Shown here: positions 4,662-63,046 of the stretch, piece by piece | Layout: every line of letters starts with the position of its first letter | Numbering within the stretch: the first letter of the stretch is position 1 | Assembly: GCA_013289095.1 (NCBI GenBank) | Contig: JABDAO010000002.1 | Coordinates: 2,673 to 66,672 of the forward strand | DNA from: Bacteroidota bacterium | GTDB taxonomy: Bacteria > Bacteroidota > Bacteroidia > Palsa-965 | DNA length: 64,000 bases | Direction of reading: 5' to 3' | Translations under genes and position numbers: made by a program | Notes under the pieces: model-generated | Databases searched by the model: none | Seen by the model: only the letters and a program-made list of their open reading frames with translations | What the model was told of the DNA's origin: nothing

Positions 4662-4880
4662 TTACTTGACTTCTTCGTAATCCACATATTCACCGTCCTG
4701 GTCAGAGCTTTTGGTTTTCTTTTGCTCCACCTTTTTTTCGACGGTTACCTTGCCTTCCTGAGAGCGGTTGTAATGATGGGTATGGTGCTGATTTACCGTG
4801 TAACGCTGAACGATGGTTTGTCCCCCGAATATTTTGTAGAGGACCCACAGGATGATTAAGCCAACGAGTATATCTTTCAT
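4662..4880 (-). CDS. Small DUF4834-like membrane-anchored protein
   Basis: N-terminal TM helix and C-terminal GEYVDYEEVK. Typical neighbour of YfhO in Bacteroidota. Confidence 0.75.
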   Translation of the reverse strand: MKDILVGLIILWVLYKIFGGQTIVQRYTVNQHHTHHYNRSQEGKVTVEKKVEQKKTKSSDQDGEYVDYEEVK

Positions 4881-5014
4881 GAGTTGTAATTTGACACGCG
4901 AATATACGAAATGTGCTTTATTCGGGGCCCCGGCATCTTAAAACATCCGTTGTTTCCTGTTTTCGGGGGGCATGCCCGGTCTGCCTCTCTTGTTTTACCC
5001 TGCAGGGTGTCTGA

Positions 5015-6397
5015 TCAATACAGATTCACCGTAACCGATTTGTCGGTGCTGATCGAAAACTTTTTTTCGATGGTATAGGCCGATTCCTTGCGGCTGCGTG
5101 CCCTGAACTCCACGCGGTAACTGCCGGGTTGTAAAAAATAGTTTTGGATGGTCTGGTTATTATCGAGGTTACAGACCCATTGAAGATCGCCTTTGTTTTC
5201 GAGATAGATGCTGCCGCTGCCCGCTTCTCCGGTCAGGAGTTTCAATTCGCCGGCTCCGGGTATGTCGATGTTTTTTGTCTGGCCTTGCTCTATCTGTATG
5301 CCTTCGAGGTAGATACGGGGCAGGGTCAGGATTTCGAGGGCATAGACGCCTACCAGGTATTTTTCGTCCTGGTTAAAATCCTGCATGTTCAGGATTGCCG
5401 CATCGCCTTGTTTGCGCACCAGTGTTTTGATGCGGTAATTGAAGTTGTAGATGCCAGTGGTGCGGTTGATTTGCAACTTTCCCTGAGGGGCATCGAGGGC
5501 TATGATATTATGACGGCCCATCTCGAGTTTTACGTTTGTTTTTTGCACTTCGGGTATGGTATGCACCACCACGTCGTAGGTAGGGTTGGCATCGAGTGTC
5601 AGGGTATCGGGGTTATGGAGGGGATTGAGGGTATGCAGGTAATTGTATCGGATGTTGCCGCTGAAATGATCGTAAAAGGTCATATCCACATTGGTTTCGG
5701 TGGGGTTTCCGCTTTGGTCGAGCAGGTTGACCTGGGCCGTGGTGCGGTTCATGGTTTGGGTGATCACCACATTCACCACATTGAGCAGGGCATTGGGTTC
5801 TTCGACACTGAAATACTGACCCACGCAATCAAACGTCCGGCTTTGTTCCTGGCTGATGCCGATGCCGAGGATATAGGGTTTGAAGACAATGCCTCGTTCG
5901 CGCAGTTTGCGGGCCGATTCGCAGGGATCGCCCCCGCATTCCTCGATTCCGTCGGTGATGAGCAGGATGATATTGGTAGCAGGCGTTGGGGGGAAATCAT
6001 CGGCTGCCAGGTCGAGCGAATGGGCGATTGGAGTAATGCCCGTAGGTTTGAGCGGGACGACATGGCTCTTGATCTGCGCCGTGTTGTGCAATGCAAACGG
6101 AACGGCCAGATGGCTGTCGTTGCAATCGCCGGGGGGGTACATTTTCTCGGCCCCGTAGATGCGCAAGGCCAGTTCGAGTTTGGGGATGCGCTGCAGGCTG
6201 TCGACAATGCGGTTCATCAGGCTTTTGGCTGCTTCAATACGGGTTACGCCTTCGTATTTGGCCTGCATGCTGTTGGAAGCGTCGAAGATGATCAGGATGC
6301 GCACGGGCAGGCCCTGAACAGGTTTGGCGCCTTGGGCGGATGAACAAACAGAGGCTGCAAAACAGACCCCACACAGAAACAACCGCAGTTGATACAT
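5015..6397 (-). CDS. Secreted VWA-domain protein
   Basis: Signal peptide, MIDAS motif DASNS, GITPIAHSL, LITDGIEECGGDPC. Confidence 0.85.
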   Translation of the reverse strand: MYQLRLFLCGVCFAASVCSSAQGAKPVQGLPVRILIIFDASNSMQAKYEGVTRIEAAKSLMNRIVDSLQRIPKLELALRIYGAEKMYPPGDCNDSHLAVPFALHNTAQIKSHVVPLKPTGITPIAHSLDLAADDFPPTPATNIILLITDGIEECGGDPCESARKLRERGIVFKPYILGIGISQEQSRTFDCVGQYFSVEEPNALLNVVNVVITQTMNRTTAQVNLLDQSGNPTETNVDMTFYDHFSGNIRYNYLHTLNPLHNPDTLTLDANPTYDVVVHTIPEVQKTNVKLEMGRHNIIALDAPQGKLQINRTTGIYNFNYRIKTLVRKQGDAAILNMQDFNQDEKYLVGVYALEILTLPRIYLEGIQIEQGQTKNIDIPGAGELKLLTGEAGSGSIYLENKGDLQWVCNLDNNQTIQNYFLQPGSYRVEFRARSRKESAYTIEKKFSISTDKSVTVNLY

Positions 6398-6490: not shown

Positions 6491-7648
6491 CTATTCTTTC
6501 TTCTGCTTTGGCTCATCCTGAAAATTCTCAAAGCAATCGACCAGGCTTTCTACCACCATACAAAGCACAACTTTTGGTTTTTCTTTTCTGACAATATCGA
6601 GGTTGAGGCGGTGCTCCCATTTGTCCCAGATAAACGAGGTCCGTCCGAAATGTGCGCTGAGGAGGTTGCGCATGAGTATATTGGTAAAACTTTCGCGCAT
6701 CACCAGCAAACCGGGCAGCGTGGAGTCTTTGTTCTGAAATACCAGGTGGTACTCATAACAGTATGGAAATCCGCTGGGGCATGGGTACTGGGCCCCGGAT
6801 TTTTCGGAAGAAGCCAGGCGTACAGCCGGTTTGAGATCGGTATGCACATCTTTCCAGAGATCTGCCATGCCTATCATTTCGAGGATATTGCCTCCGCGCT
6901 GCACGGTGTCGCGTATGGAAAAATCTGTCAAGGGCAAGGGCGCCGGGATCGGATAATCGTTCTTCAGCCAGCGTATGATTTCCTGATAGGCATAAAAAAC
7001 GCCCAGCCCGTTCCAATGGTTATCGCCCTTGACATACAACTGACCGTTTTGTTTTGCGGCCAGCATAGCCGGGCGCAGATCGAAGATCTTTACGCTACTG
7101 TGTTGGCGTACATAGGCCAGCAACTGATCGGTGGCATTGGGCCCGGGGTATCTCTTTACATAATCGGGCAGGTATTCGGGATACACACTGAATTTGCTTG
7201 GTATGATCACTACCCGGTATTCTGCCCCTTCGGCGGCACAGGCCTTGCGGCGGTATTCGAGTTCTTCGAGGCTCTTTTTCAGATCGGATGCATCGAAACG
7301 GAATTTTCCGGTATAGATATTCAGCTCGTTGTTGGCCATATACAACCATCCGGCCTTGCCGATCATTACCATCGAGGGTTTGGGCGATTTGTGAAAATAC
7401 CGTGCATACACATAGTTATAACCAAAGATCAACGAGTTGCGGGCCGGAAAATGATCGTTGTACCAGGGCTCATACTGGGGAGGGAACGAATCGAGCAAGG
7501 CCGGTCTGAACTTTGGCCAGCGTGCAGGGGCCTTGTTCTCGAACGAAATGGTCTTTTCTTTCCATCCGCTCAGCCACACGGCCCCAGGCAAGAGCAGCAG
7601 GGCCATAAAGCCAATACAAAAGCCAGTATAGAGGGTACGTTTGTTCAC
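6491..7648 (-). CDS. AlgJ/AlgX-like (DHHW/SGNH) periplasmic O-acyltransferase
   Basis: N-terminal TM helix, WYNDHFPARN, GKAGWLY, GDNHWNGLG (Asp/His) and RESF (Ser). Immediately downstream of an MBOAT. Confidence 0.8.
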   Translation of the reverse strand: MNKRTLYTGFCIGFMALLLLPGAVWLSGWKEKTISFENKAPARWPKFRPALLDSFPPQYEPWYNDHFPARNSLIFGYNYVYARYFHKSPKPSMVMIGKAGWLYMANNELNIYTGKFRFDASDLKKSLEELEYRRKACAAEGAEYRVVIIPSKFSVYPEYLPDYVKRYPGPNATDQLLAYVRQHSSVKIFDLRPAMLAAKQNGQLYVKGDNHWNGLGVFYAYQEIIRWLKNDYPIPAPLPLTDFSIRDTVQRGGNILEMIGMADLWKDVHTDLKPAVRLASSEKSGAQYPCPSGFPYCYEYHLVFQNKDSTLPGLLVMRESFTNILMRNLLSAHFGRTSFIWDKWEHRLNLDIVRKEKPKVVLCMVVESLVDCFENFQDEPKQKKE

Positions 7649-10776: not shown

Positions 10777-13086
10777 ATGAATTATTCGATCATTTATCTG
10801 GTGCCCTGTCTGGGGATTCTAGGATTACTGGTGATGGCCATCAAATCGGCCTGGGTTACAAAACAGGAGGCCGGTGAGGCCAAGATGCAGGAGCTGGCCG
10901 GCTATATTGCCGCCGGCGCCATTGCTTTTCTGCGTGCCGAGTGGAAAATACTGAGCGTGTTTGCTGTTATTGCCTGTTCATTGCTTACCTGGTCGGGTTT
11001 TACGGTAGCCAACTCAAGCCCTGTTATTGCTATTTCGTTCCTGATCGGGGCCATCTTTTCGGCCGTTGCCGGTTATATCGGGATGAAAATTGCCACCAAG
11101 GCAAACGTCCGCACGGCTCATGCTGCCAAGACCAGTCTGGCACAGGCGCTTAAAGTATCGTTTACAGGTGGTACCGTAATGGGCCTGGGTGTTGCAGGTT
11201 TGGCCGTACTTGGTCTGAGCGGTTTGTTCATTGTGTTCATCAGCATGTTTCATGTGGTGAGCGTAAACAGCGAAGAGATGCGCAAAGCCATTGAAGTGTT
11301 GACCGGTTTCTCCCTGGGTGCTGAATCCATTGCCCTGTTTGCACGCGTTGGAGGCGGTATCTATACCAAGGCTGCCGATGTAGGGGCCGATCTGGTCGGA
11401 AAAGTAGAAGCCGGAATCCCCGAAGATGATGTACGTAACCCTGCTACCATTGCCGACAACGTAGGCGATAACGTAGGCGATGTGGCCGGTATGGGAGCCG
11501 ATTTGTTTGGTTCGTATGTAGCCACCATCCTGGCAACCATGGTGCTTGGTCAGGAAATCAAGGTTACCGATAACTTTAACGGGTTTTCGCCTATCCTGTT
11601 GCCGATGGTGCTTGCCGGTCTTGGCATCGTATTCTCGATTTTGGGAACTGTGTTTGTACGTATTAAAGACGAAAAGTCAAGCGTACAGGCTGCGCTCAAT
11701 ATGGGCAACTATTCATCGATTGTATTCACTGCCGTGGCTTCGTTCTTCCTGGTGCGCTGGATGCTTCCTGCAACGCTTTCTATACGCGGCATCACGTTCA
11801 CTTCCATGGATGTGTTTTATGCCATTATCTTAGGTTTGGTAGTAGGCACACTCATGAGCATGATTACCGAATACTACACCGCCATGGGCAAACGCCCGGT
11901 GAACTCAATCATCCGTCAAAGCTCTACAGGCCATGCCACCAATATTATTGGCGGTTTATCGGTAGGGATGGAATCAACCGTTGCTCCAACCATTGTGCTG
12001 GCAGCCGGTATTTTTGGTTCTTACGAACTGGCCGGCATCTATGGTGTGGCCATTGCCGCAGCAGGCATGATGGCTACCACGGCCATGCAGCTTTCTATTG
12101 ATGCCTTTGGCCCGATTGCCGACAACGCAGGCGGCATTGCCGAAATGAGCGGTCTGCCGAAAGAAGTACGCGAACGCACCGATAACCTCGATGCAGTAGG
12201 TAACACCACGGCAGCTACAGGCAAAGGGTTTGCCATTGCTTCTGCCGCGCTTACCTCGCTTGCCCTTTTTGCAGCCTTTGTCGGGATTGCCATGCCCGAT
12301 GCACAACACATTGATATCTACAAAGCCCCGGTGCTTGCCGGTTTGTTTGTGGGCGCCATGATCCCCTTTATCTTTTCATCGTTGTGTATTGCAGCCGTAG
12401 GGCGTGCAGCCATGGCCATGGTCGAAGAAGTGCGCCGTCAGTTCCGCGAAATTCCGGGTATTATGGAATACAAGGCCAAGCCCGAGTATGAAAAATGCGT
12501 GGCTATCTCCACCCAGGCCTCTATCCGCGAGATGATCCTTCCGGGAGCCATTGCGCTTATCGTACCGCTGATCGTAGGCTTTACCTTCGGCCCCGAAGTA
12601 TTGGGCGGTTTGCTGGCCGGTGTAACGGTATCGGGTGTGCTGATGGGTATGTTCCAGTCGAACGCCGGTGGAGCATGGGACAATGCCAAGAAATCGTTCG
12701 AAAAAGGCGTGGAGATCAACGGACAAAAATATTTCAAAGGATCAGACCCACACAAAGCCTCTGTAACCGGCGATACTGTTGGTGATCCGTTCAAAGACAC
12801 ATCAGGGCCTTCGATGAACATCCTGATCAAGTTAATGTCTATCGTTTCCCTCGTTATTGCGCCACATATCATCAAACATGAAACCGTAGCCCTTCCGGTT
12901 GGCTCAAACCAGCCTGCAAAGGAGCTGAAGATGGATGCCCCCGTATCGGGTTTCATCCAAAACACGACAACTGCGGCCCCGGTTGCAACGGTATGGTCAT
13001 TCCGTTTTATGGATGCGGCGAAATTTGTTGCCGAAAAACCTTCGACCGTTGTTGTTGAGGCAGCAACTGCGGAAGCAAAGATCTGA
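10777..13086 (+). CDS. hppA: Membrane-integral ion-translocating pyrophosphatase, K+-dependent type
   Basis: GGGIYTKAADVGADLVGKVEAGIPEDD, DNVGDNVGD, DAVGNTTAATGKG, GGAWDNAKK, DTVGDPFKDTSGPS. Confidence 0.95.
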   Translation: MNYSIIYLVPCLGILGLLVMAIKSAWVTKQEAGEAKMQELAGYIAAGAIAFLRAEWKILSVFAVIACSLLTWSGFTVANSSPVIAISFLIGAIFSAVAGYIGMKIATKANVRTAHAAKTSLAQALKVSFTGGTVMGLGVAGLAVLGLSGLFIVFISMFHVVSVNSEEMRKAIEVLTGFSLGAESIALFARVGGGIYTKAADVGADLVGKVEAGIPEDDVRNPATIADNVGDNVGDVAGMGADLFGSYVATILATMVLGQEIKVTDNFNGFSPILLPMVLAGLGIVFSILGTVFVRIKDEKSSVQAALNMGNYSSIVFTAVASFFLVRWMLPATLSIRGITFTSMDVFYAIILGLVVGTLMSMITEYYTAMGKRPVNSIIRQSSTGHATNIIGGLSVGMESTVAPTIVLAAGIFGSYELAGIYGVAIAAAGMMATTAMQLSIDAFGPIADNAGGIAEMSGLPKEVRERTDNLDAVGNTTAATGKGFAIASAALTSLALFAAFVGIAMPDAQHIDIYKAPVLAGLFVGAMIPFIFSSLCIAAVGRAAMAMVEEVRRQFREIPGIMEYKAKPEYEKCVAISTQASIREMILPGAIALIVPLIVGFTFGPEVLGGLLAGVTVSGVLMGMFQSNAGGAWDNAKKSFEKGVEINGQKYFKGSDPHKASVTGDTVGDPFKDTSGPSMNILIKLMSIVSLVIAPHIIKHETVALPVGSNQPAKELKMDAPVSGFIQNTTTAAPVATVWSFRFMDAAKFVAEKPSTVVVEAATAEAKI

Positions 13087-13121
13087 GTACGACAAACACG
13101 ATTTTAACTGCATACTATTTT

Positions 13122-13165
13122 ACCGCCCCCGGTTTTCTGAAAAGAAAAAAGAGGGCGGTTTTTTT
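13122..13165 (+). terminator. Probable intrinsic terminator after hppA
   Basis: ACCGCCC (13122-13128) pairs with GGGCGGT (13153-13159), followed by a T-run. The loop is long. Confidence 0.5.
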
Positions 13166-13370
13166 ATGGGAGATGGGATCGTATTTTCTACCTGGAAACA
13201 GTGAACACCGGGAAACACCGGGAAAAACAGGTACTGCCTCCGTGCCACTTAGCGGTCGCTGTGCCCCCGTGTTAAATCAAAAATCAATAAATCCACAAAA
13301 AAAACACACATACCATACAATAACCCCAGCCAAAAAACGTTAATAGCTGGAAATAAGTTCGCTCCAGGTA

Positions 13371-13402
13371 TTGACTTATTAAATTTCTTGAGCGTATATT
13401 TG
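13371..13402 (+). promoter_or_regulatory. Bacteroidota promoter (TTG, 21-nt spacer, TATATTTG) facing the 21-bp array and orphan gene
   Basis: TTGAC at 13371 and TATATTTG at 13395-13402. Confidence 0.55.
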
Positions 13403-13710
13403 TTTCGCGATTGACATTTCAGTCAGAAAATACACTGGTACAAAGGGCAAGGGATAGTCTTCGAAGAATCCCGGGCCTGGGCAGCAACAAAAGCCACAGA
13501 CTACCAGCACACGACCAGAACGCCCGAAGAACGCAAACGTGAAGTTGCACTGCGCAGAACGATGACAGGAAGGCCCCTACGGACACCCCACCTGTCTTTT
13601 GTAACAAGGGAACAAGACACGATCATTCTATACCTAACAGGCCTCTGTTCAACCTTGAACCGGGGTGGGCCCGCACTTTAAACAGCTCTGCCGGATATCC
13701 GTACGGACCC

Positions 13711-13930
13711 TCTGAACCTGTAACCGGGCAACTTGACACAGGTAACGGGAAACTTGCGCGGGCGACCGGAAAACTTGCGCGGGCAACCGGAAATCTTGCG
13801 CGGGCAACCGGAAATCTTGCGCGGGCGACCGGAAATCTTGCGCGGGCAACCGGAAATCTTGCGCGGGCGACCGGAAAACTTGCGCGGGTGACCGGAAATC
13901 TTGCGCGGGCGACCGGAAATCTTGCGCGGG
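13711..13930. repeat. 21-bp tandem array #1 (unit CTTGCGCGGGCRACCGGAAAW)
   Basis: CTTGCGCGGG recurs 9 times at exact 21-nt spacing (13753 to 13921), with two degenerate units upstream. Confidence 0.95.
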
Positions 13931-14061
13931 TTCTTCTGCCACCCGTGCAGGCAAACGAACCGGATGAAGGTCTGGACCGTTTAGCGATGCATCAGGCTCC
14001 TGCAATCACCCGAAAAAGGAATTTACTCAACACTTATTCATTCATTTAAAACCTGCAAAAC

Positions 14062-14784
14062 ATGACAACCCTCAAGAAAGATTCGCGTATACCACGCAAT
14101 CACCCCAAATTCGATCTTTATATCAAAACAGCTGTTGCCTTCCTGCAGGGAGGCGGCACACCCAACAATGGTATCAGGCTGGGGCTTACCGCGGCCGACA
14201 TCACCCAGGCCCAGAGCATGCTCGCCATCTGGTATACGGGCAATGCGGCTTCGCCGGGTATCTACGAACAGCATACCAACCCCAATACCCGTACAAAGGT
14301 GACCACCCGGTTGGTAAAAGAGTTCATCATCAATTTCTCGGCTTTCTTCCGCTCGCTGTTAAATAGCATGGCCGGCAACAAAGCCATCACCCCGGCCGAT
14401 CGTGCCATGCTTAACATTGCCGCTCCCAACCCAGCCCGCAGCCAGCAGCGTCTGGCCCTGGTCAATACGGTGTATTTCGAGGGCAAGCCCATCGGGGGTG
14501 GAGAACTCAAGGTCTATTGCCGTACCGTAAAAGGCTCGAAACGGGGCAGCAAGGCCCCCGGCTCCGATTCGGTAGAGCTTTCGTACAAACTGGGCGACCC
14601 AGCGCCTACCGGAGGCGATGACCCAAACAACAAACACGAAATTTTTAGCCGTGCCGAATTCATCATGCCTTTCGGGGCATCCAATGCCGGTCAAAAAGTA
14701 CACCTCTTTGCCCGCTGGATCAACTCCAAACATAAACAACTGGCAGGGCCCTGGAGCCCGGTTACCAGTGTGTTTTTGGCATAG
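14062..14784 (+). CDS. Uncharacterised 240-aa protein: helical N-terminal half, beta-rich (FN3/Ig-like) C-terminal half
   Basis: Clean ORF with an A-rich upstream region. The C-terminus AGQKVHLFARWINSKHKQLAGPWSPV resembles a widespread unannotated family ending R-W-x-N-x(n)-GPWS (recalled, not searched). Confidence 0.8.
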   Translation: MTTLKKDSRIPRNHPKFDLYIKTAVAFLQGGGTPNNGIRLGLTAADITQAQSMLAIWYTGNAASPGIYEQHTNPNTRTKVTTRLVKEFIINFSAFFRSLLNSMAGNKAITPADRAMLNIAAPNPARSQQRLALVNTVYFEGKPIGGGELKVYCRTVKGSKRGSKAPGSDSVELSYKLGDPAPTGGDDPNNKHEIFSRAEFIMPFGASNAGQKVHLFARWINSKHKQLAGPWSPVTSVFLA

Positions 14785-15070
14785 GGGGGAGAGTTGGGGG
14801 GGAGGAAGCATTAGCGCCACAATCGTTGCAGCTGATGCTCCCCCTTACCTCTTCCTTGAGTGTATATGCTAAGCAGGCCGGGCAACCTGCAGGCTTCGTC
14901 ATCGCCCGCCCGGAGCATTTCTCTGAAGGATTCGCAAAGCATAAGCTGCAAGCCAAGGATGGGCCTGACAGCTATCAGCGGGTGCATCCGAAACGCCCGA
15001 CGCTTCAGCTCCTGAAAAGCATAAATTTCAGGGCTTTTATCTAAACCATAAACCCAATGGTTACAAATTA

Positions 15071-15400
15071 GGGTTCACTCAAAAAGTCGGCAATCTAGTG
15101 GAGGACGAATCGCCCTGTGCGCTGGGGAGTCCACGCGGAGAGCGAACTTCAAGATGGCTGGCGAGAAGCGATGGCCTGTGCTGAAAAGCCATCTTGAAGT
15201 TGGTCCGCGTGGGGCCTTTTTTGCGTTACTTTTTGGGCAAGCAAAAAGTAACTAAAAAATTCCTTTGAACACAAAGTTCGTCCACGTACTGCTTGGTGCA
15301 AGGGTTTTGATTGGAAACGGTATTTAGTATTGCATCTCAATGATGAAAGTGAGACATTATGTGTTGATTGGGTGATGGTTGTAGGTGTTTGAGTGAACAC
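15071..15400. mobile_element. MITE-like element with 13-bp imperfect TIRs and TA flanks
   Basis: Left end GGGTTCACTCAAA and right end TTTGAGTGAACAC (12/13 match), with TA on both sides. Nested internal inverted repeats: 15145-15159/15187-15201 (perfect 15 bp), 15131-15139/15204-15212, 15225-15235/15242-15252. No transposase. Confidence 0.6.
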
Positions 15401-15403
15401 TAA

Positions 15404-15613
15404 TTAGAGATGCCCTGGAGTTCACTCAAAAAGTCAGAACACGACAGGCTTCATTGCGTGTATTTATCAACCAATTAAAAGGTAGGTTTCATGAATCAAT
15501 CAGTAACCCCGCGCTGAAGCGCGGGGTTACTAACATTAGGGTTCAGTACCATATAGACTTTGGGCTTTAGCCACAAGGAGAAGTTTAGCTAAGGTTAGAT
15601 TGGGCTAAAGCCC
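15404..15613. repeat. Mosaic of REP/MITE fragments
   Basis: TTAGAGATGCCC end fragment (15404-15415); second GTTCACTCAAAAAGTC copy (15420-15435); perfect 13-bp hairpin AGTAACCCCGCGC/GCGCGGGGTTACT (15502-15531); GGGCTTTAGCC/GGCTAAAGCCC pair (15562-15613). Confidence 0.7.
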
Positions 15614-15698
15614 CAAGGTGTGGAGGAAACTTATTTTATTAATTTAATGCCGGAATTAGAGGTCTAAACTCATACGTAAAAACACCAAAACCCCAATT

Positions 15699-16172
15699 TT
15701 GAAAGTAACATTAATCCAAGTAGGCCGTACCGAAGAGCCCTGGTTAAAGGAAGGCATTGAAGTGTATGCAAAGCGGCTCGGGCATTATCTTCCGTTTTCG
15801 GTTGTGGAGCTGGCTGCTTTAAAAAGCAAGACGCGTCTTAGCCCCGAACAGCAAAAGGAAAAGGAAGGGGAGTTGATTCTGAAAGCGCTCATGCCCGGCG
15901 ATAAGGTCTATCTGCTGGATGAAAACGGAAAAGAATACAGCTCACCGGCCCTGGCCACCTTGCTGCAAATGCAGATGAACGGTTCTGTTAAAAATCTTGT
16001 TTTTATAATCGGGGGCCCTTTTGGGTTTTCAAAAGCCGTTTATGAACGATGCGATGGTAAGGTGGCCTTGTCTAAATTAACATTTACGCATCAGATGGTC
16101 AGACTGTTCTATACCGAACAGCTGTATCGGGCAATGACAATTCTGAGGGGAGAAAAATATCACCATGAATGA
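15699..16172 (+). CDS. rlmH: 23S rRNA (pseudouridine1915-N3)-methyltransferase
   Basis: LDENGK, FIIGGPFGF, LSKLTFTHQMVRLFYTEQLYRA, YHHE. TTG start. Confidence 0.95.
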   Translation: MKVTLIQVGRTEEPWLKEGIEVYAKRLGHYLPFSVVELAALKSKTRLSPEQQKEKEGELILKALMPGDKVYLLDENGKEYSSPALATLLQMQMNGSVKNLVFIIGGPFGFSKAVYERCDGKVALSKLTFTHQMVRLFYTEQLYRAMTILRGEKYHHE

Positions 16173-17513: not shown

Positions 17514-18476
17514 TTAAGGCCGAATTTCGTCAAGAAGCTGTTTTACCCTATTGGAAAGATCACGACTCTGAATTTCTGCCCCCAGATGATTTAAGTGATT
17601 TGGGTCTTTCCAGTAAGAAGCAGAGGTTGAAAGACCGGGCAGGCTCAGTTCAAGATAGTTGATGTACGGTATTTTATTTTCACCACAAAGCAACTTGATT
17701 TTATCTGTAGAAGGTTTCAGATAGTCAGCCATAGCCCGGCTGAAATAGGGAGATGTGAAAAGAATAAGCCTGATATGTAGTCGTTTGCAAGTAGAAATAA
17801 TTGATTGCAGATCGGTAGTATATTCAGAAAGGAATTTGGCCGGAGGGAACACTTCCCGCTGAATAGAACGCAGGGTATAAATACTGTCGGTAGCTTCGGC
17901 CGGAATGAGATCATAACCGGTTTGAAGCTGTTTTGGATGCAGTACTGTTTTAAAATAATTATTTAACAGTGTAAGTACCCTGCCGTTATAACGATAGGTA
18001 TGAAAGTAAAAAAGATATTTTTTTGTTGACCCTTCGTTGTTAATCAGTGTGGTCACTTCCTCGTTTTTTCCGTAATAATAACGTAAAAATTCGACAGAGT
18101 TTAAGTTTTTTCGGGTGATACCCTCTTGTCCAAGATATTGACCAGGGTCTATCTGAAGCAGAATTGTTTTGGGGAGTTGTTTCTTTTCTTCAAGCACGGC
18201 CAGGAGTCCTCTTTGAAAGCAGTCGTCCGTTGCTGAATGCGCAATGTTGTATGTCGGCATCTTGAAACTATCTGGTACTACCTGATAATAAGCCCGAGAA
18301 TTTCCCATGATCAGGAGATCTGGCGGAGTGGGCAAGGAAAGATAATAATTGATCTTCCCTCCCGATTGTCCAGTCATTGTTTTGACATAAAGACAATCGA
18401 GAAAGGACGCAGCCAGCCGGTCCATTGTGAAAACAAGGATGAACAGTCCAGCCAGGTATATGCCAAACGATCTCAT
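17514..18476 (-). CDS. SGNH-like periplasmic partner of MBOAT #2
   Basis: N-terminal TM helix, MGNSRA (Ser block), WKDPNHLNHLGA (Asp/His block). Start overlaps the MBOAT stop (TAATG). Confidence 0.75.
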   Translation of the reverse strand: MRSFGIYLAGLFILVFTMDRLAASFLDCLYVKTMTGQSGGKINYYLSLPTPPDLLIMGNSRAYYQVVPDSFKMPTYNIAHSATDDCFQRGLLAVLEEKKQLPKTILLQIDPGQYLGQEGITRKNLNSVEFLRYYYGKNEEVTTLINNEGSTKKYLFYFHTYRYNGRVLTLLNNYFKTVLHPKQLQTGYDLIPAEATDSIYTLRSIQREVFPPAKFLSEYTTDLQSIISTCKRLHIRLILFTSPYFSRAMADYLKPSTDKIKLLCGENKIPYINYLELSLPGLSTSASYWKDPNHLNHLGAEIQSRDLSNRVKQLLDEIRP

Positions 18477-32751: not shown

Positions 32752-32856
32752 GTGTATTTACGAAGGAGAAGAGTGTATTTACGAAGGGAAAATGTGTATT
32801 TACGAAGGAGAAGAGTGTATTGATGAGGAAGAAGAGTGGACTATGTAGAGGAGAGG
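32752..32856. repeat. 21-bp tandem array #2 (unit GTGTATTTACGAAGGAGAAGA), short and degenerate
   Basis: Units start at 32752, 32773, 32794 and 32815, with a degenerate unit at 32836. Confidence 0.8.
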
Positions 32857-62297: not shown

Positions 62298-62962
62298 GAT
62301 CTCTGTTTAAGCTTACCCACTGCTTGCCCGGGATTCCGGATGCCGTTGCTTAAGATCCCTGCCTGTTCCCCAGGGTTTTCGACATGTTCCCCAGAGTTCC
62401 CGACATGTTCCCCAAGCTTCCCGGCATGTTCCCCAAGCTTCCCTACATGTTTACTAAGCTTCCCGACATGTTTGCTAAGGTTCCCGACATGTTTACTAAG
62501 CTTCCCGACATGTTCCCCAAGCTTCCCGACATGTTTGCTAAGCTTCCCGACACGTTTACTAAGCTTCCCGACACGTTTACTAAACTTCCCGACATGTTCC
62601 CCAAGCTTCCCGACATGTTTACTAAGCTTCCCGACACATTTACTAAGCTTCCCGACATGTTTGCTAAGCTTCCCGACATGTTTACTAAGCTTCCCGACAC
62701 GTTTACTAAGCTTCCCGACATGTTCCCCAAGCTTCCCGACATGTTTGCTAAGCTTCCCGACATGTTTCCCAAGCTTCCCGACACGTTTACTAAGCTTCCC
62801 GACATGTTCCCCGAGGTTCCCGATATGTTCCCCAAGGTTCCCGACATGTTCCCTGAGGTTATCGACACGTTCCCCAAGGTTCCCGACATGTTCCCCAAGC
62901 TTCCCGACATGTTCCCCAAGGTTCCCGACATGTTTACTAAGCTTCCCGACATGTTCCCCAAG
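62298..62962. repeat. 21-bp tandem array #3 (unit AAGCTTCCCGACATGTTCCCC and variants)
   Basis: 27.5 well-conserved units (62384-62962) plus about 4 degenerate units on the left. No spacers. Confidence 0.97.
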
Positions 62963-63046
62963 CCTTGGCTACCCGAAGCCTTTGATTGGATTATTCAAAC
63001 AGACCCGATAGATCCTGACTGAAGTTTAGTAAATTTGAATCCGTAT

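Follow-up and report, generated by a model that had tools for sequence, protein, structure and literature searches.

A 21-bp tandem array conserved upstream of a family of small basic helical and FN3-like proteins in Bacteroidia

Plasmid centromere and iteron arrays, such as F sopC/SopB (12 units of 43 bp, each with a dyad), pSK41 parC/ParR (20-bp units) and the iterons of R6K and RK2 (about 22 bp), are specific to one cognate protein encoded alongside and are located at or near its promoter, hence their autoregulating character. Among Bacteroidota, BrickBuilt of Porphyromonas gingivalis is a minisatellite-bearing MITE (miniature inverted-repeat transposable element) with one 23-nt unit, present at 19 loci and without an associated gene (Klein et al. 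2015, PMC4596501). A 21-bp step is also generated by the operators of LytTR domains (AgrA/ComE/SilA family), which bind 9-10-bp direct repeats separated by 11-12-bp spacers, 9+12 giving 21 bp (PMC2766830). The present analysis concerns a tandem array of 21-bp units and the gene for a 240-aa protein located directly behind it, both found in a window (the whole stretch of DNA that was analysed) of 64,000 nucleotides from a Bacteroidota bacterium (GenBank assembly GCA_013289095.1, contig JABDAO010000002.1, positions 2,673 to 66,672 of the forward strand). The array-plus-gene cassette is real and conserved.

The family of the 240-aa protein, here called F1, was represented by 73 loci from 27 genomes and 11 genera, oriented on the start codon defined by a hidden Markov model. 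A preliminary description of the window had asked whether 21-bp arrays are enriched near homologues of the protein, and this is the case: at 64 of the 73 loci Tandem Repeats Finder (TRF) placed an array with a 21-, 42- or 63-bp period in the 900 nt upstream of the gene, and at most of the nine remaining loci a lag of 21 or 42 gave the top autocorrelation. The arrays contain 3-35 copies and typically end 34-230 nt before the ATG, in some cases as near as 17-34 nt; arrays downstream of the F1 gene were never found. Periods other than 21 and its multiples do not occur, although the unit sequences are unrelated; well-kept arrays are free of indels, and the 21-bp unit has no 7-bp sub-period. In the source genome (G000) a 21-bp array is present upstream of each of the four paralogues, the window one (C2) and three others (C43, C24 and C79); its end is about 100-160 nt from the ATG, and its unit differs from one paralogue to the next:

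C2 (window): unit GGAAATCTTGCGCGGGCGACC, 8.8 copies
C43: unit GGAAGAAGTTGCGCGCACACG, 12 copies
C24: unit TTCCGACGGCGCCCGCGAAAG, 7+ copies
C79: unit AAGACACCGGAGGAACTTGTG, 9.8 copies

An unrelated AT-rich Bacteroidetes metagenome-assembled genome has about 8 copies of TCTATTAAAAAGATAGAACGT in the equivalent position.

As judged from the comparison of orthologous loci, the unit and the leader downstream of it are under purifying selection, with the copy number free to vary. Two sets of orthologues gave the following identities:

L030/L059/L061: protein 86%, four-fold sites 62-66%, unit 20-21 of 21 positions, array-to-ATG leader 100% over 59-73 nt
L056/L060: protein 81%, four-fold sites 57%, unit 21 of 21 positions, array-to-ATG leader 88%

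In the orthologue sets the array-to-ATG segment is 85-100% identical against 57-66% at four-fold sites, and the copy number in the first set is 11.4, 13.8 and 17.8; copy-number polymorphism was not seen between L091 and L092, two samples with an identical protein and identical arrays. Since the unit consensus is conserved while four-fold sites diverge, neutral satellite drift does not account for it. Paralogue units of one genome have only 10-13 of 21 positions in common, which is near random, and the conservation of all 21 positions within a locus, together with their divergence between paralogues, speaks for a sequence-specific reader that every locus has to itself. The sole regular co-inheritance partner of each array is the gene behind it. 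Overall, the array is very probably a functional non-coding cis-element, locked to a 21-bp period and joined in a conserved module to a family of small basic proteins combining a helical and an FN3 part.

The cassette of the window is organised as follows:

13371..13403, plus strand: promoter-like site TTGACT-N18-TATATT with TATATTTG, sigma-70-type score 10/12
13404..13747, plus strand: pre-array leader, the last part of which consists of 2-3 degenerate 21-bp units (13685-13747)
13748..13930, plus strand: non-coding array of 8.8 copies of the 21-bp unit GGAAATCTTGCGCGGGCGACC, delimited by TRF and classed by the family-level frame test
13931..14061, plus strand: post-array leader, A-rich and G-poor just 5' of the ATG
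14062..14784, plus strand: gene for the 240-aa basic protein (pI about 10), with a helical N-terminal part (residues 14-116) and an FN3-like C-terminal part (138-238)

The array, spacer-less and intergenic, is located between hppA and the 240-aa gene, and TRF describes it (13748-13930) with period 21, 93% matches and zero indels; the three strongest tandem repeats of the window all have period 21. The promoter that the preliminary description placed 5' of the array was recovered, and TATATTTG at 13396-13403 matches the Bacteroidetes -7 box TAnnTTTG, about 350 nt 5' of the array. From this box to the ATG there are about 660 nt, with the array inside, and because it lies downstream of a Bacteroidetes-type promoter the array is probably part of this long leader. 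An A-rich, CCTTAAAAACAAAA-like stretch 5' of the ATG recurs throughout the F1 family. The leader folds with a moderate z of -2.5, and an Rfam scan of 13000-15800 gave zero matches at E<=1 between 13000 and 14785. Around 13560-13610 (GACAGGAAGGCCCC...CCTGTCTTTTG) the leader is conserved with paralogue C24; the block common to both, 13556-13612 in the window, reads GACAGGAAG(G/A)GCCCC.AC.GACAC.CC.CCTG.CTTTTG, and in C24 it falls inside a 52-codon open reading frame (ORF) with an ATG, where the differences between the two copies are mostly synonymous; the same frame is without a start codon in the window. Short repeats of 8-10 bp (AACACCGGGA; ACCACGGAG / CTCCGTGTC) at window positions 13204-13290, and at 4841-4935 and 6779-6853 of locus L010, are hairpin-like elements with the common end ...CCGTGTTAAATC that flank the C2 and C43 cassettes and constitute a separate small repeat family of the source genome. 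A comparison with same-genus genomes showed retention of the rlmH-galE synteny with hppA not adjacent, and gave no clean empty site.

The gene behind the array had been regarded as an orphan, a view that does not stand: a HMMER search against 1.84 billion cluster representatives retrieved 777 F1 relatives at E<=1e-3 (405 at E<=1e-10), with lengths that nearly always fall at 225-260 aa; a word-indexed search gave only three relatives. Searches of Pfam, NCBIfam, PHROGs and PDB sequences with the 240-aa protein and 109 relatives gave no family. The AlphaFold2 model obtained from the family alignment (predicted local distance difference test score 95) comprises a six-helix N-terminal domain (14-116) and a seven-strand C-terminal sandwich. 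With the whole model Foldseek matched FN3 domains only, the top hits having template-modelling scores (target) of 0.6-0.77, so that an FN3-type seven-stranded beta-sandwich is present in F1 by predicted structure; at the sequence level Pfam fn3 is not reached. The N-terminal domain modelled alone had no match in the PDB with Foldseek, the best E-value being 1. F1 proteins are basic (median pI 9.4). Among polar positions, near-invariance is limited to two arginines, R9, which falls in a disordered N-terminal arm, and R218, and no conserved catalytic constellation is present in the family. As to distribution, the source genome has four F1 copies, and the 34 further genomes from its order have none. 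One sample of 401 genomes (199 genera) drawn from the class contained F1 in 27 genomes and 11 genera, a single genome encoding as many as 7 or more copies, and a second sample, of 400 genomes from the phylum, contained no F1. Plasmid and phage collections gave no tblastn hits for F1, a search for a viral origin was likewise empty, and a metagenome scan for further loci returned nothing. F1 is chromosomal, multicopy and patchy in Bacteroidia.

Arrays of this period are not restricted to F1 genes. In the source assembly (2.95 Mb, 62% complete), TRF set to periods of at least 10 and at least 3.5 copies gave 109 rows of period 21, 47 of period 42, 11 of period 63 and at most 6 of any other. After merging there are about 120 arrays, covering 33 kb (1.1% of the assembly) and falling into 33 unit classes (18, 16, 6, 4, 4, 4, 3 ... 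loci); 52 arrays lie between tandem, 23 between divergent and 16 between convergent genes, which is near random, and 29 are at contig ends. Besides the array of the F1 cassette, two of these arrays are in the window. The one at 62380-62963 (27.8 copies, unit CGACATGTTTCCTAAGCTTCC) is located between a D-Ala-D-Ala-ligase-like gene and a gene for a 278-aa PASTA-like protein and is a member of the largest class (18 loci), MITE-like, with a conserved leader and tail; the one at 32752-32838 (4.1 copies, unit GTGTATTTACGAAGGAGAAGA) belongs to the second largest class (16 loci).

The unit class of the window cassette has 2 loci in the source genome, and the other one is gene-less. This second array (G000:C17:33725-33901; L009 about 5726-5902, minus strand) has about 8 copies of the unit GGAAAACTTGCGCGGGCGACC, lies between the convergent 3' ends of a gene for a protein with a type IX secretion system (T9SS) tail and an S9 peptidase gene, and is preceded by a hairpin formed from an inverted unit (CCCGTGCAACTTCC...GGAAGTTGCACGGG); its homology with the window locus is limited to the array. 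The same arrangement, one gene-linked array with 1-3 gene-less arrays of the same class and array-confined homology, applies to all four F1 genes (C2 with C17; C43 with C114 and C15; C79 with C29; C24 with C3) and to several genes of a second family, F2. The latter comprises unannotated proteins of about 210-250 aa with a helical N-terminal part and a C-terminal part that reaches fn3 at the Pfam level; the hhalign probability of homology between F1 and F2 is 0.2, and they are not called one family. The source genome encodes six copies of F2:

C55:14088-15222, C4:16576-17760, C21:13608-14723, C13:17682-18693, C107:2940-4495, C19:3174-5112

Five of them have an array 2-550 nt upstream and the sixth is 800 nt from an array of class 1. 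The chance of an array within 800 nt upstream of a given gene of this genome is about 3%, and all ten F1 and F2 genes have one; the F2 layout with an upstream array was also found in the genomes G164 and G032.

The density of arrays, determined on 400-kb samples from other genomes and on the whole source genome, is 22-55 per Mb in the F1 carriers (G000, G164 and G241), 10 in a same-genus genome with F2 only, and none in a non-carrier. In the G164 sample eight of about nine non-coding arrays are located 37-180 nt upstream of an ATG, and the genes behind them encode an F1 protein, two F2 proteins, two 404-aa proteins with a helical and a CarboxypepD_reg part, a 336-aa helical protein, a T9SS collagen-like protein and a 123-aa protein. 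The 404-aa paralogues (L099:5818-7029 and L108:17698-18909) have a helical N-terminal part and a CarboxypepD_reg sandwich, the C-terminus of the 336-aa protein (L106:10903-11910) resembles that of this pair, and the arrays of all three are 104-140 nt upstream. In the G241 sample, with 22 arrays, all five F1 genes have an array 81-300 nt upstream; in the same-genus genome without F1 one of the 4 arrays precedes an F2 gene.

Concerning the gene neighbourhood, no conserved downstream partner gene is present across the F1 loci. The nearest ORF upstream of the array, determined at 72 loci, encodes a LytTR protein in 9 cases, GerE/LuxR in 6, an XRE helix-turn-helix (HTH) protein in 3 and sigma70_r4 in 2. 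The LytTR genes (about 110-125 aa, same strand as the F1 gene; L021, L023, L024, L038, L046, L049, L077, L078 and L019) end at some loci only 4-18 nt before the first unit; GerE/LuxR genes are in the equivalent position at L030, L058, L059, L061 and L067, and XRE HTH genes at L016, L018 and L066.

Further features of the units concern their symmetry and spacing. Against a null in which the unit columns were permuted and the tandem structure was kept, dyad symmetry is enriched among 51 arrays (mean z -1.41; 22 of the 51 below -1.64 and none above +1.64; Wilcoxon p=1.6e-7). In folding, the sense strand has a z of -3.3 and the antisense strand of -3.5, the antisense being more stable in 39 of 56 arrays, so that no G:U signature is present; as there is no sense-strand folding advantage, the symmetry looks DNA-like. 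A step of 21 bp corresponds to two turns of B-DNA and is kept whatever the sequence, and shifts within the unit are compensated, as in GGAA-ATC-TTGCGCG of C2 and GGAA-GAAG-TTGCGCG of C43, both of 21 bp. The words TTCCG, AAGTT/AACTT and GTTCC are enriched in the units, which suggests an ancestral core resembling GGAA-N-TTCC. Other motifs considered by eye, namely a DnaA box, sigma-54 and extracytoplasmic function -35 (GGAACTT) elements and Arc-like 'RxPR', were inconsistent across arrays and were discarded. The C24 array (G000:C24 about 17622-17810; L014) is bracketed by a perfect 18-bp inverted repeat, CGGAAGTTTCTACTACGT ... ACGTAGTAGAAACTTCCG, and in L030/L059/L061 a 10-bp bracket, TTCTTTGAAT / ATTCAAAGAA, is kept around the array; no bracketing inverted repeat was found at the window array (L013, P=0.96).

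The explanation tentatively favoured here is that of a phased array of recognition sites read by a partner private to the locus, likely the encoded protein, in a cooperative and autoregulating manner. Each 21-bp unit would be the recognition site of a sequence-specific partner, for which the small basic helical and FN3 protein encoded directly downstream is the likeliest candidate; several protein molecules would line up next to one another along a single face of the DNA, each occupying one unit or a 42-bp pair, and would control the expression of their own gene by occlusion or roadblock, cooperatively and in a way tunable by the copy number. Gene-less arrays elsewhere in the genome that have a matching unit would be recognised by this protein as well. 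In favour of this explanation are the association of array and gene at 64 of 73 loci, the paralogue-specific units and their conservation among orthologues, the locked period, the enriched dyads, the gene-less copies, the basic protein with its two nearly invariant arginines and the high array density of carrier genomes; the period, the dyads, the absent sense-strand advantage and the enriched words favour DNA. Binding itself, the encoded protein as the reader, DNA rather than RNA as the target and autoregulation as the outcome are inferred. Several observations weigh against this explanation. The 240-aa protein is without a recognisable DNA- or RNA-binding fold, as FN3 domains are all that Foldseek matched, and the unit of the window itself has no significant dyad (z=-0.6). 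Moreover, 33 unit classes face about 10 F1 and F2 genes in a 62%-complete assembly, most classes being without a visible cognate gene; convergent genes flank 16 of 91 arrays, and a MITE-like leader and tail accompany the largest class, from which it follows that arrays can exist and spread without a regulatory role. At about a quarter of the loci the small LytTR, GerE or XRE gene upstream offers an alternative reader. Finally, the placement of promoters and a strand bias, both described below, agree with a strand-specific element acting as transcribed RNA no less well than with a DNA operator.

Two alternatives place the function of the array in the transcript. One, proposed in the preliminary description, is that the array encodes a heptad peptide (LARATGK/N) produced by non-canonical initiation or frameshifting. 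The frame had been described accurately: it is open on the plus strand from 13543 to the TAA at 14047-14049, 12 nt before the ATG at 14062, reads LARATG(K/N) repeats, and has no ATG, GTG or TTG before the array, the first such codon being a GVG-type GTG at 13888. At three orthologous loci (L030/L059/L061, unit TTATCACCACAGAGCGTGATG) the array also shares the reading frame of the gene, so that 387-431 aa can be read without a stop, and the conserved Met of the family is still at its usual place. At the family level, however, the peptide is refuted. In 56 arrays of at least 100 bp, open frames number 65 in sense and 65 in antisense, 17 of the 56 have stops in all three sense frames, and the open frames are distributed over the phases relative to the gene as 19, 22 and 24, with none preferred; in C43 the frame corresponding to LARATGN is interrupted by TAA stops, the conservation of the unit extends to third positions, and the window frame is without a start codon. 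The claim that unit variation falls at third codon positions rests on three variable columns (A/T, C/T, G/A) and is statistically weightless: AAA/AAT is a non-synonymous third-position change, GCG/GCA a synonymous one and GCG/GTG a change at the second position. Coding of the heptad is therefore extremely improbable, and both the peptide and the antisense 118-aa ORF are by-products of repeating a stop-free 21-mer. An RNA-level element, in which the array in the 5' leader would form a series of short hairpins or a lattice to which the encoded protein or an RNA-binding protein of the host attaches, and would control the stability, translation or packaging of the gene's own mRNA, is possible, if on the doubtful side. 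It is consistent with the position of strict TAnnTTTG boxes, found upstream of the array at 25 of 56 loci and between array and ATG at 3 of 56; in all four paralogues of the source genome such boxes are 350-860 nt upstream (350-400 nt from the arrays of C24 and C79, further for C43). The arrays that end 17-34 nt before the ATG leave no room for a promoter, and the sense strand has an A>T skew, of +0.14 in the arrays (40 of 56, p=2.5e-5) and likewise in the post-array leader (52 of 56 loci). The extreme conservation of the array-to-ATG leader between orthologues, the perfect inverted repeats around whole arrays (18 bp in C24, 10 bp in the L030 group), comparable to a closing stem, and the folding of the window leader also agree with it. 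Against it are the lack of a sense-strand advantage in folding, the absence of an obvious reason why RNA of unrelated sequence should keep a step of exactly 21 nt, the absence of an Rfam match and the occurrence of gene-less arrays between convergent genes; pairing in cis was considered and rejected, since the complementarity of the units to the rest of the transcript is no better than that of shuffled units.

The remaining alternatives dispense with a private partner encoded by the gene. If the array were a selfish or neutral minisatellite of BrickBuilt type, the helical and FN3 gene would be its cargo, its 'autonomous' gene or its landing site, and the array would have no regulatory role. 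The about 120 arrays of the source genome (1.1% of the assembly), their 33 classes, the 29 at contig ends, their near-random setting and the leader and tail of the largest class, as in BrickBuilt (PMC4596501), are all in line with such an origin, but neutral DNA would not hold the unit at 20-21 of 21 positions and the leader at 100% with four-fold sites at 57-66%, nor would it accompany one family through 11 genera with its distance from the gene and its side unchanged; in addition, the window array has neither flank homology to its second copy nor terminal inverted repeats, and this alternative is unlikely. It is slightly less probable still that the units are sites for another factor, either a neighbouring LytTR, GerE/LuxR or XRE regulator or a general host protein reading phased DNA shape. 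The regulator genes counted upstream of the arrays, the 21-bp step of LytTR sites (PMC2766830) and the enrichment of AAGTT/AACTT and TTCCG suggest this possibility; nevertheless, the window locus and most others have no LytTR, GerE or XRE neighbour, three unrelated regulator families cannot explain one universal period, and a single host factor cannot explain private conserved units. Of the options originally put forward, a leader element and a phased protein-binding array are still the leading readings, while the heptad peptide is not.

The 21-bp arrays are now tied to genes of at least two unannotated families of small basic helical and FN3 proteins, and the puzzle of a fixed 21-bp period in spite of changing sequences becomes a testable question: does each protein bind its own unit? 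If so, the proteins would provide a new nucleic-acid-binding fold and ready-made orthogonal protein/site pairs, and about 1% of the DNA of such genomes would be explained; if not, the array would still be a conserved leader element before a widespread and probably highly expressed gene family. More speculatively, the helical and beta-sandwich proteins (F1, F2 and perhaps the 404-aa CarboxypepD_reg proteins) might represent an unrecognised class of array-specific nucleic-acid-binding proteins, each with a private 21-bp array, in which the gene-linked arrays would act as 'master' arrays and the gene-less ones, some MITE-like, as trans targets. Proteins and arrays together would then be a genetic system of a new kind in some Bacteroidia. 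They could constitute orthogonal regulons or chromatin marks, or an autonomous/non-autonomous mobile pair whose protein would specify, maintain or propagate the satellite belonging to it.

The statement of the preliminary description that no named system has this layout agrees with searches of Pfam, NCBIfam, PHROGs, PDB, Rfam and the literature, in which no description of the gene-array pairing was found. The operators of LytTR proteins resemble the arrays in their 21-bp direct-repeat step, in the LytTR gene located directly upstream at 9 of 72 loci and in the enrichment of AAGTT-like words. However, the known sites are pairs, compared with arrays of 5-35 copies, the window locus has no LytTR gene, and the units are conserved over all 21 positions and not just in a 9-bp core. 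With centromere and iteron arrays the module has in common helically phased tandem units of about 20-22 (or 43) bp that adjoin a gene and often contain internal dyads. In contrast to them, it is chromosomal and multicopy, without plasmid or phage hits; no partner ATPase/NTPase or Rep gene accompanies it, none of its neighbouring genes is conserved, and the 240-aa protein, whose binding role is putative, is without a ribbon-helix-helix, HTH or winged-helix fold. BrickBuilt is similar in its occurrence in Bacteroidota, in its spacer-less tandem repeats of 20-odd nt, strictly intergenic and variable in copy number at dispersed loci, and in the conserved leader and tail of some copies, which the largest class of the source genome has likewise. 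The differences are that units of 21 bp occur in dozens of unrelated sequences, that the window array has no leader, tail or terminal inverted repeats, that its unit class is present at only 2 loci and not at many, and that the arrays are tied to one protein family across genera, with a unit under purifying selection. The module fails the defining features both of BrickBuilt MITEs and of centromere and iteron arrays, its closest known systems.

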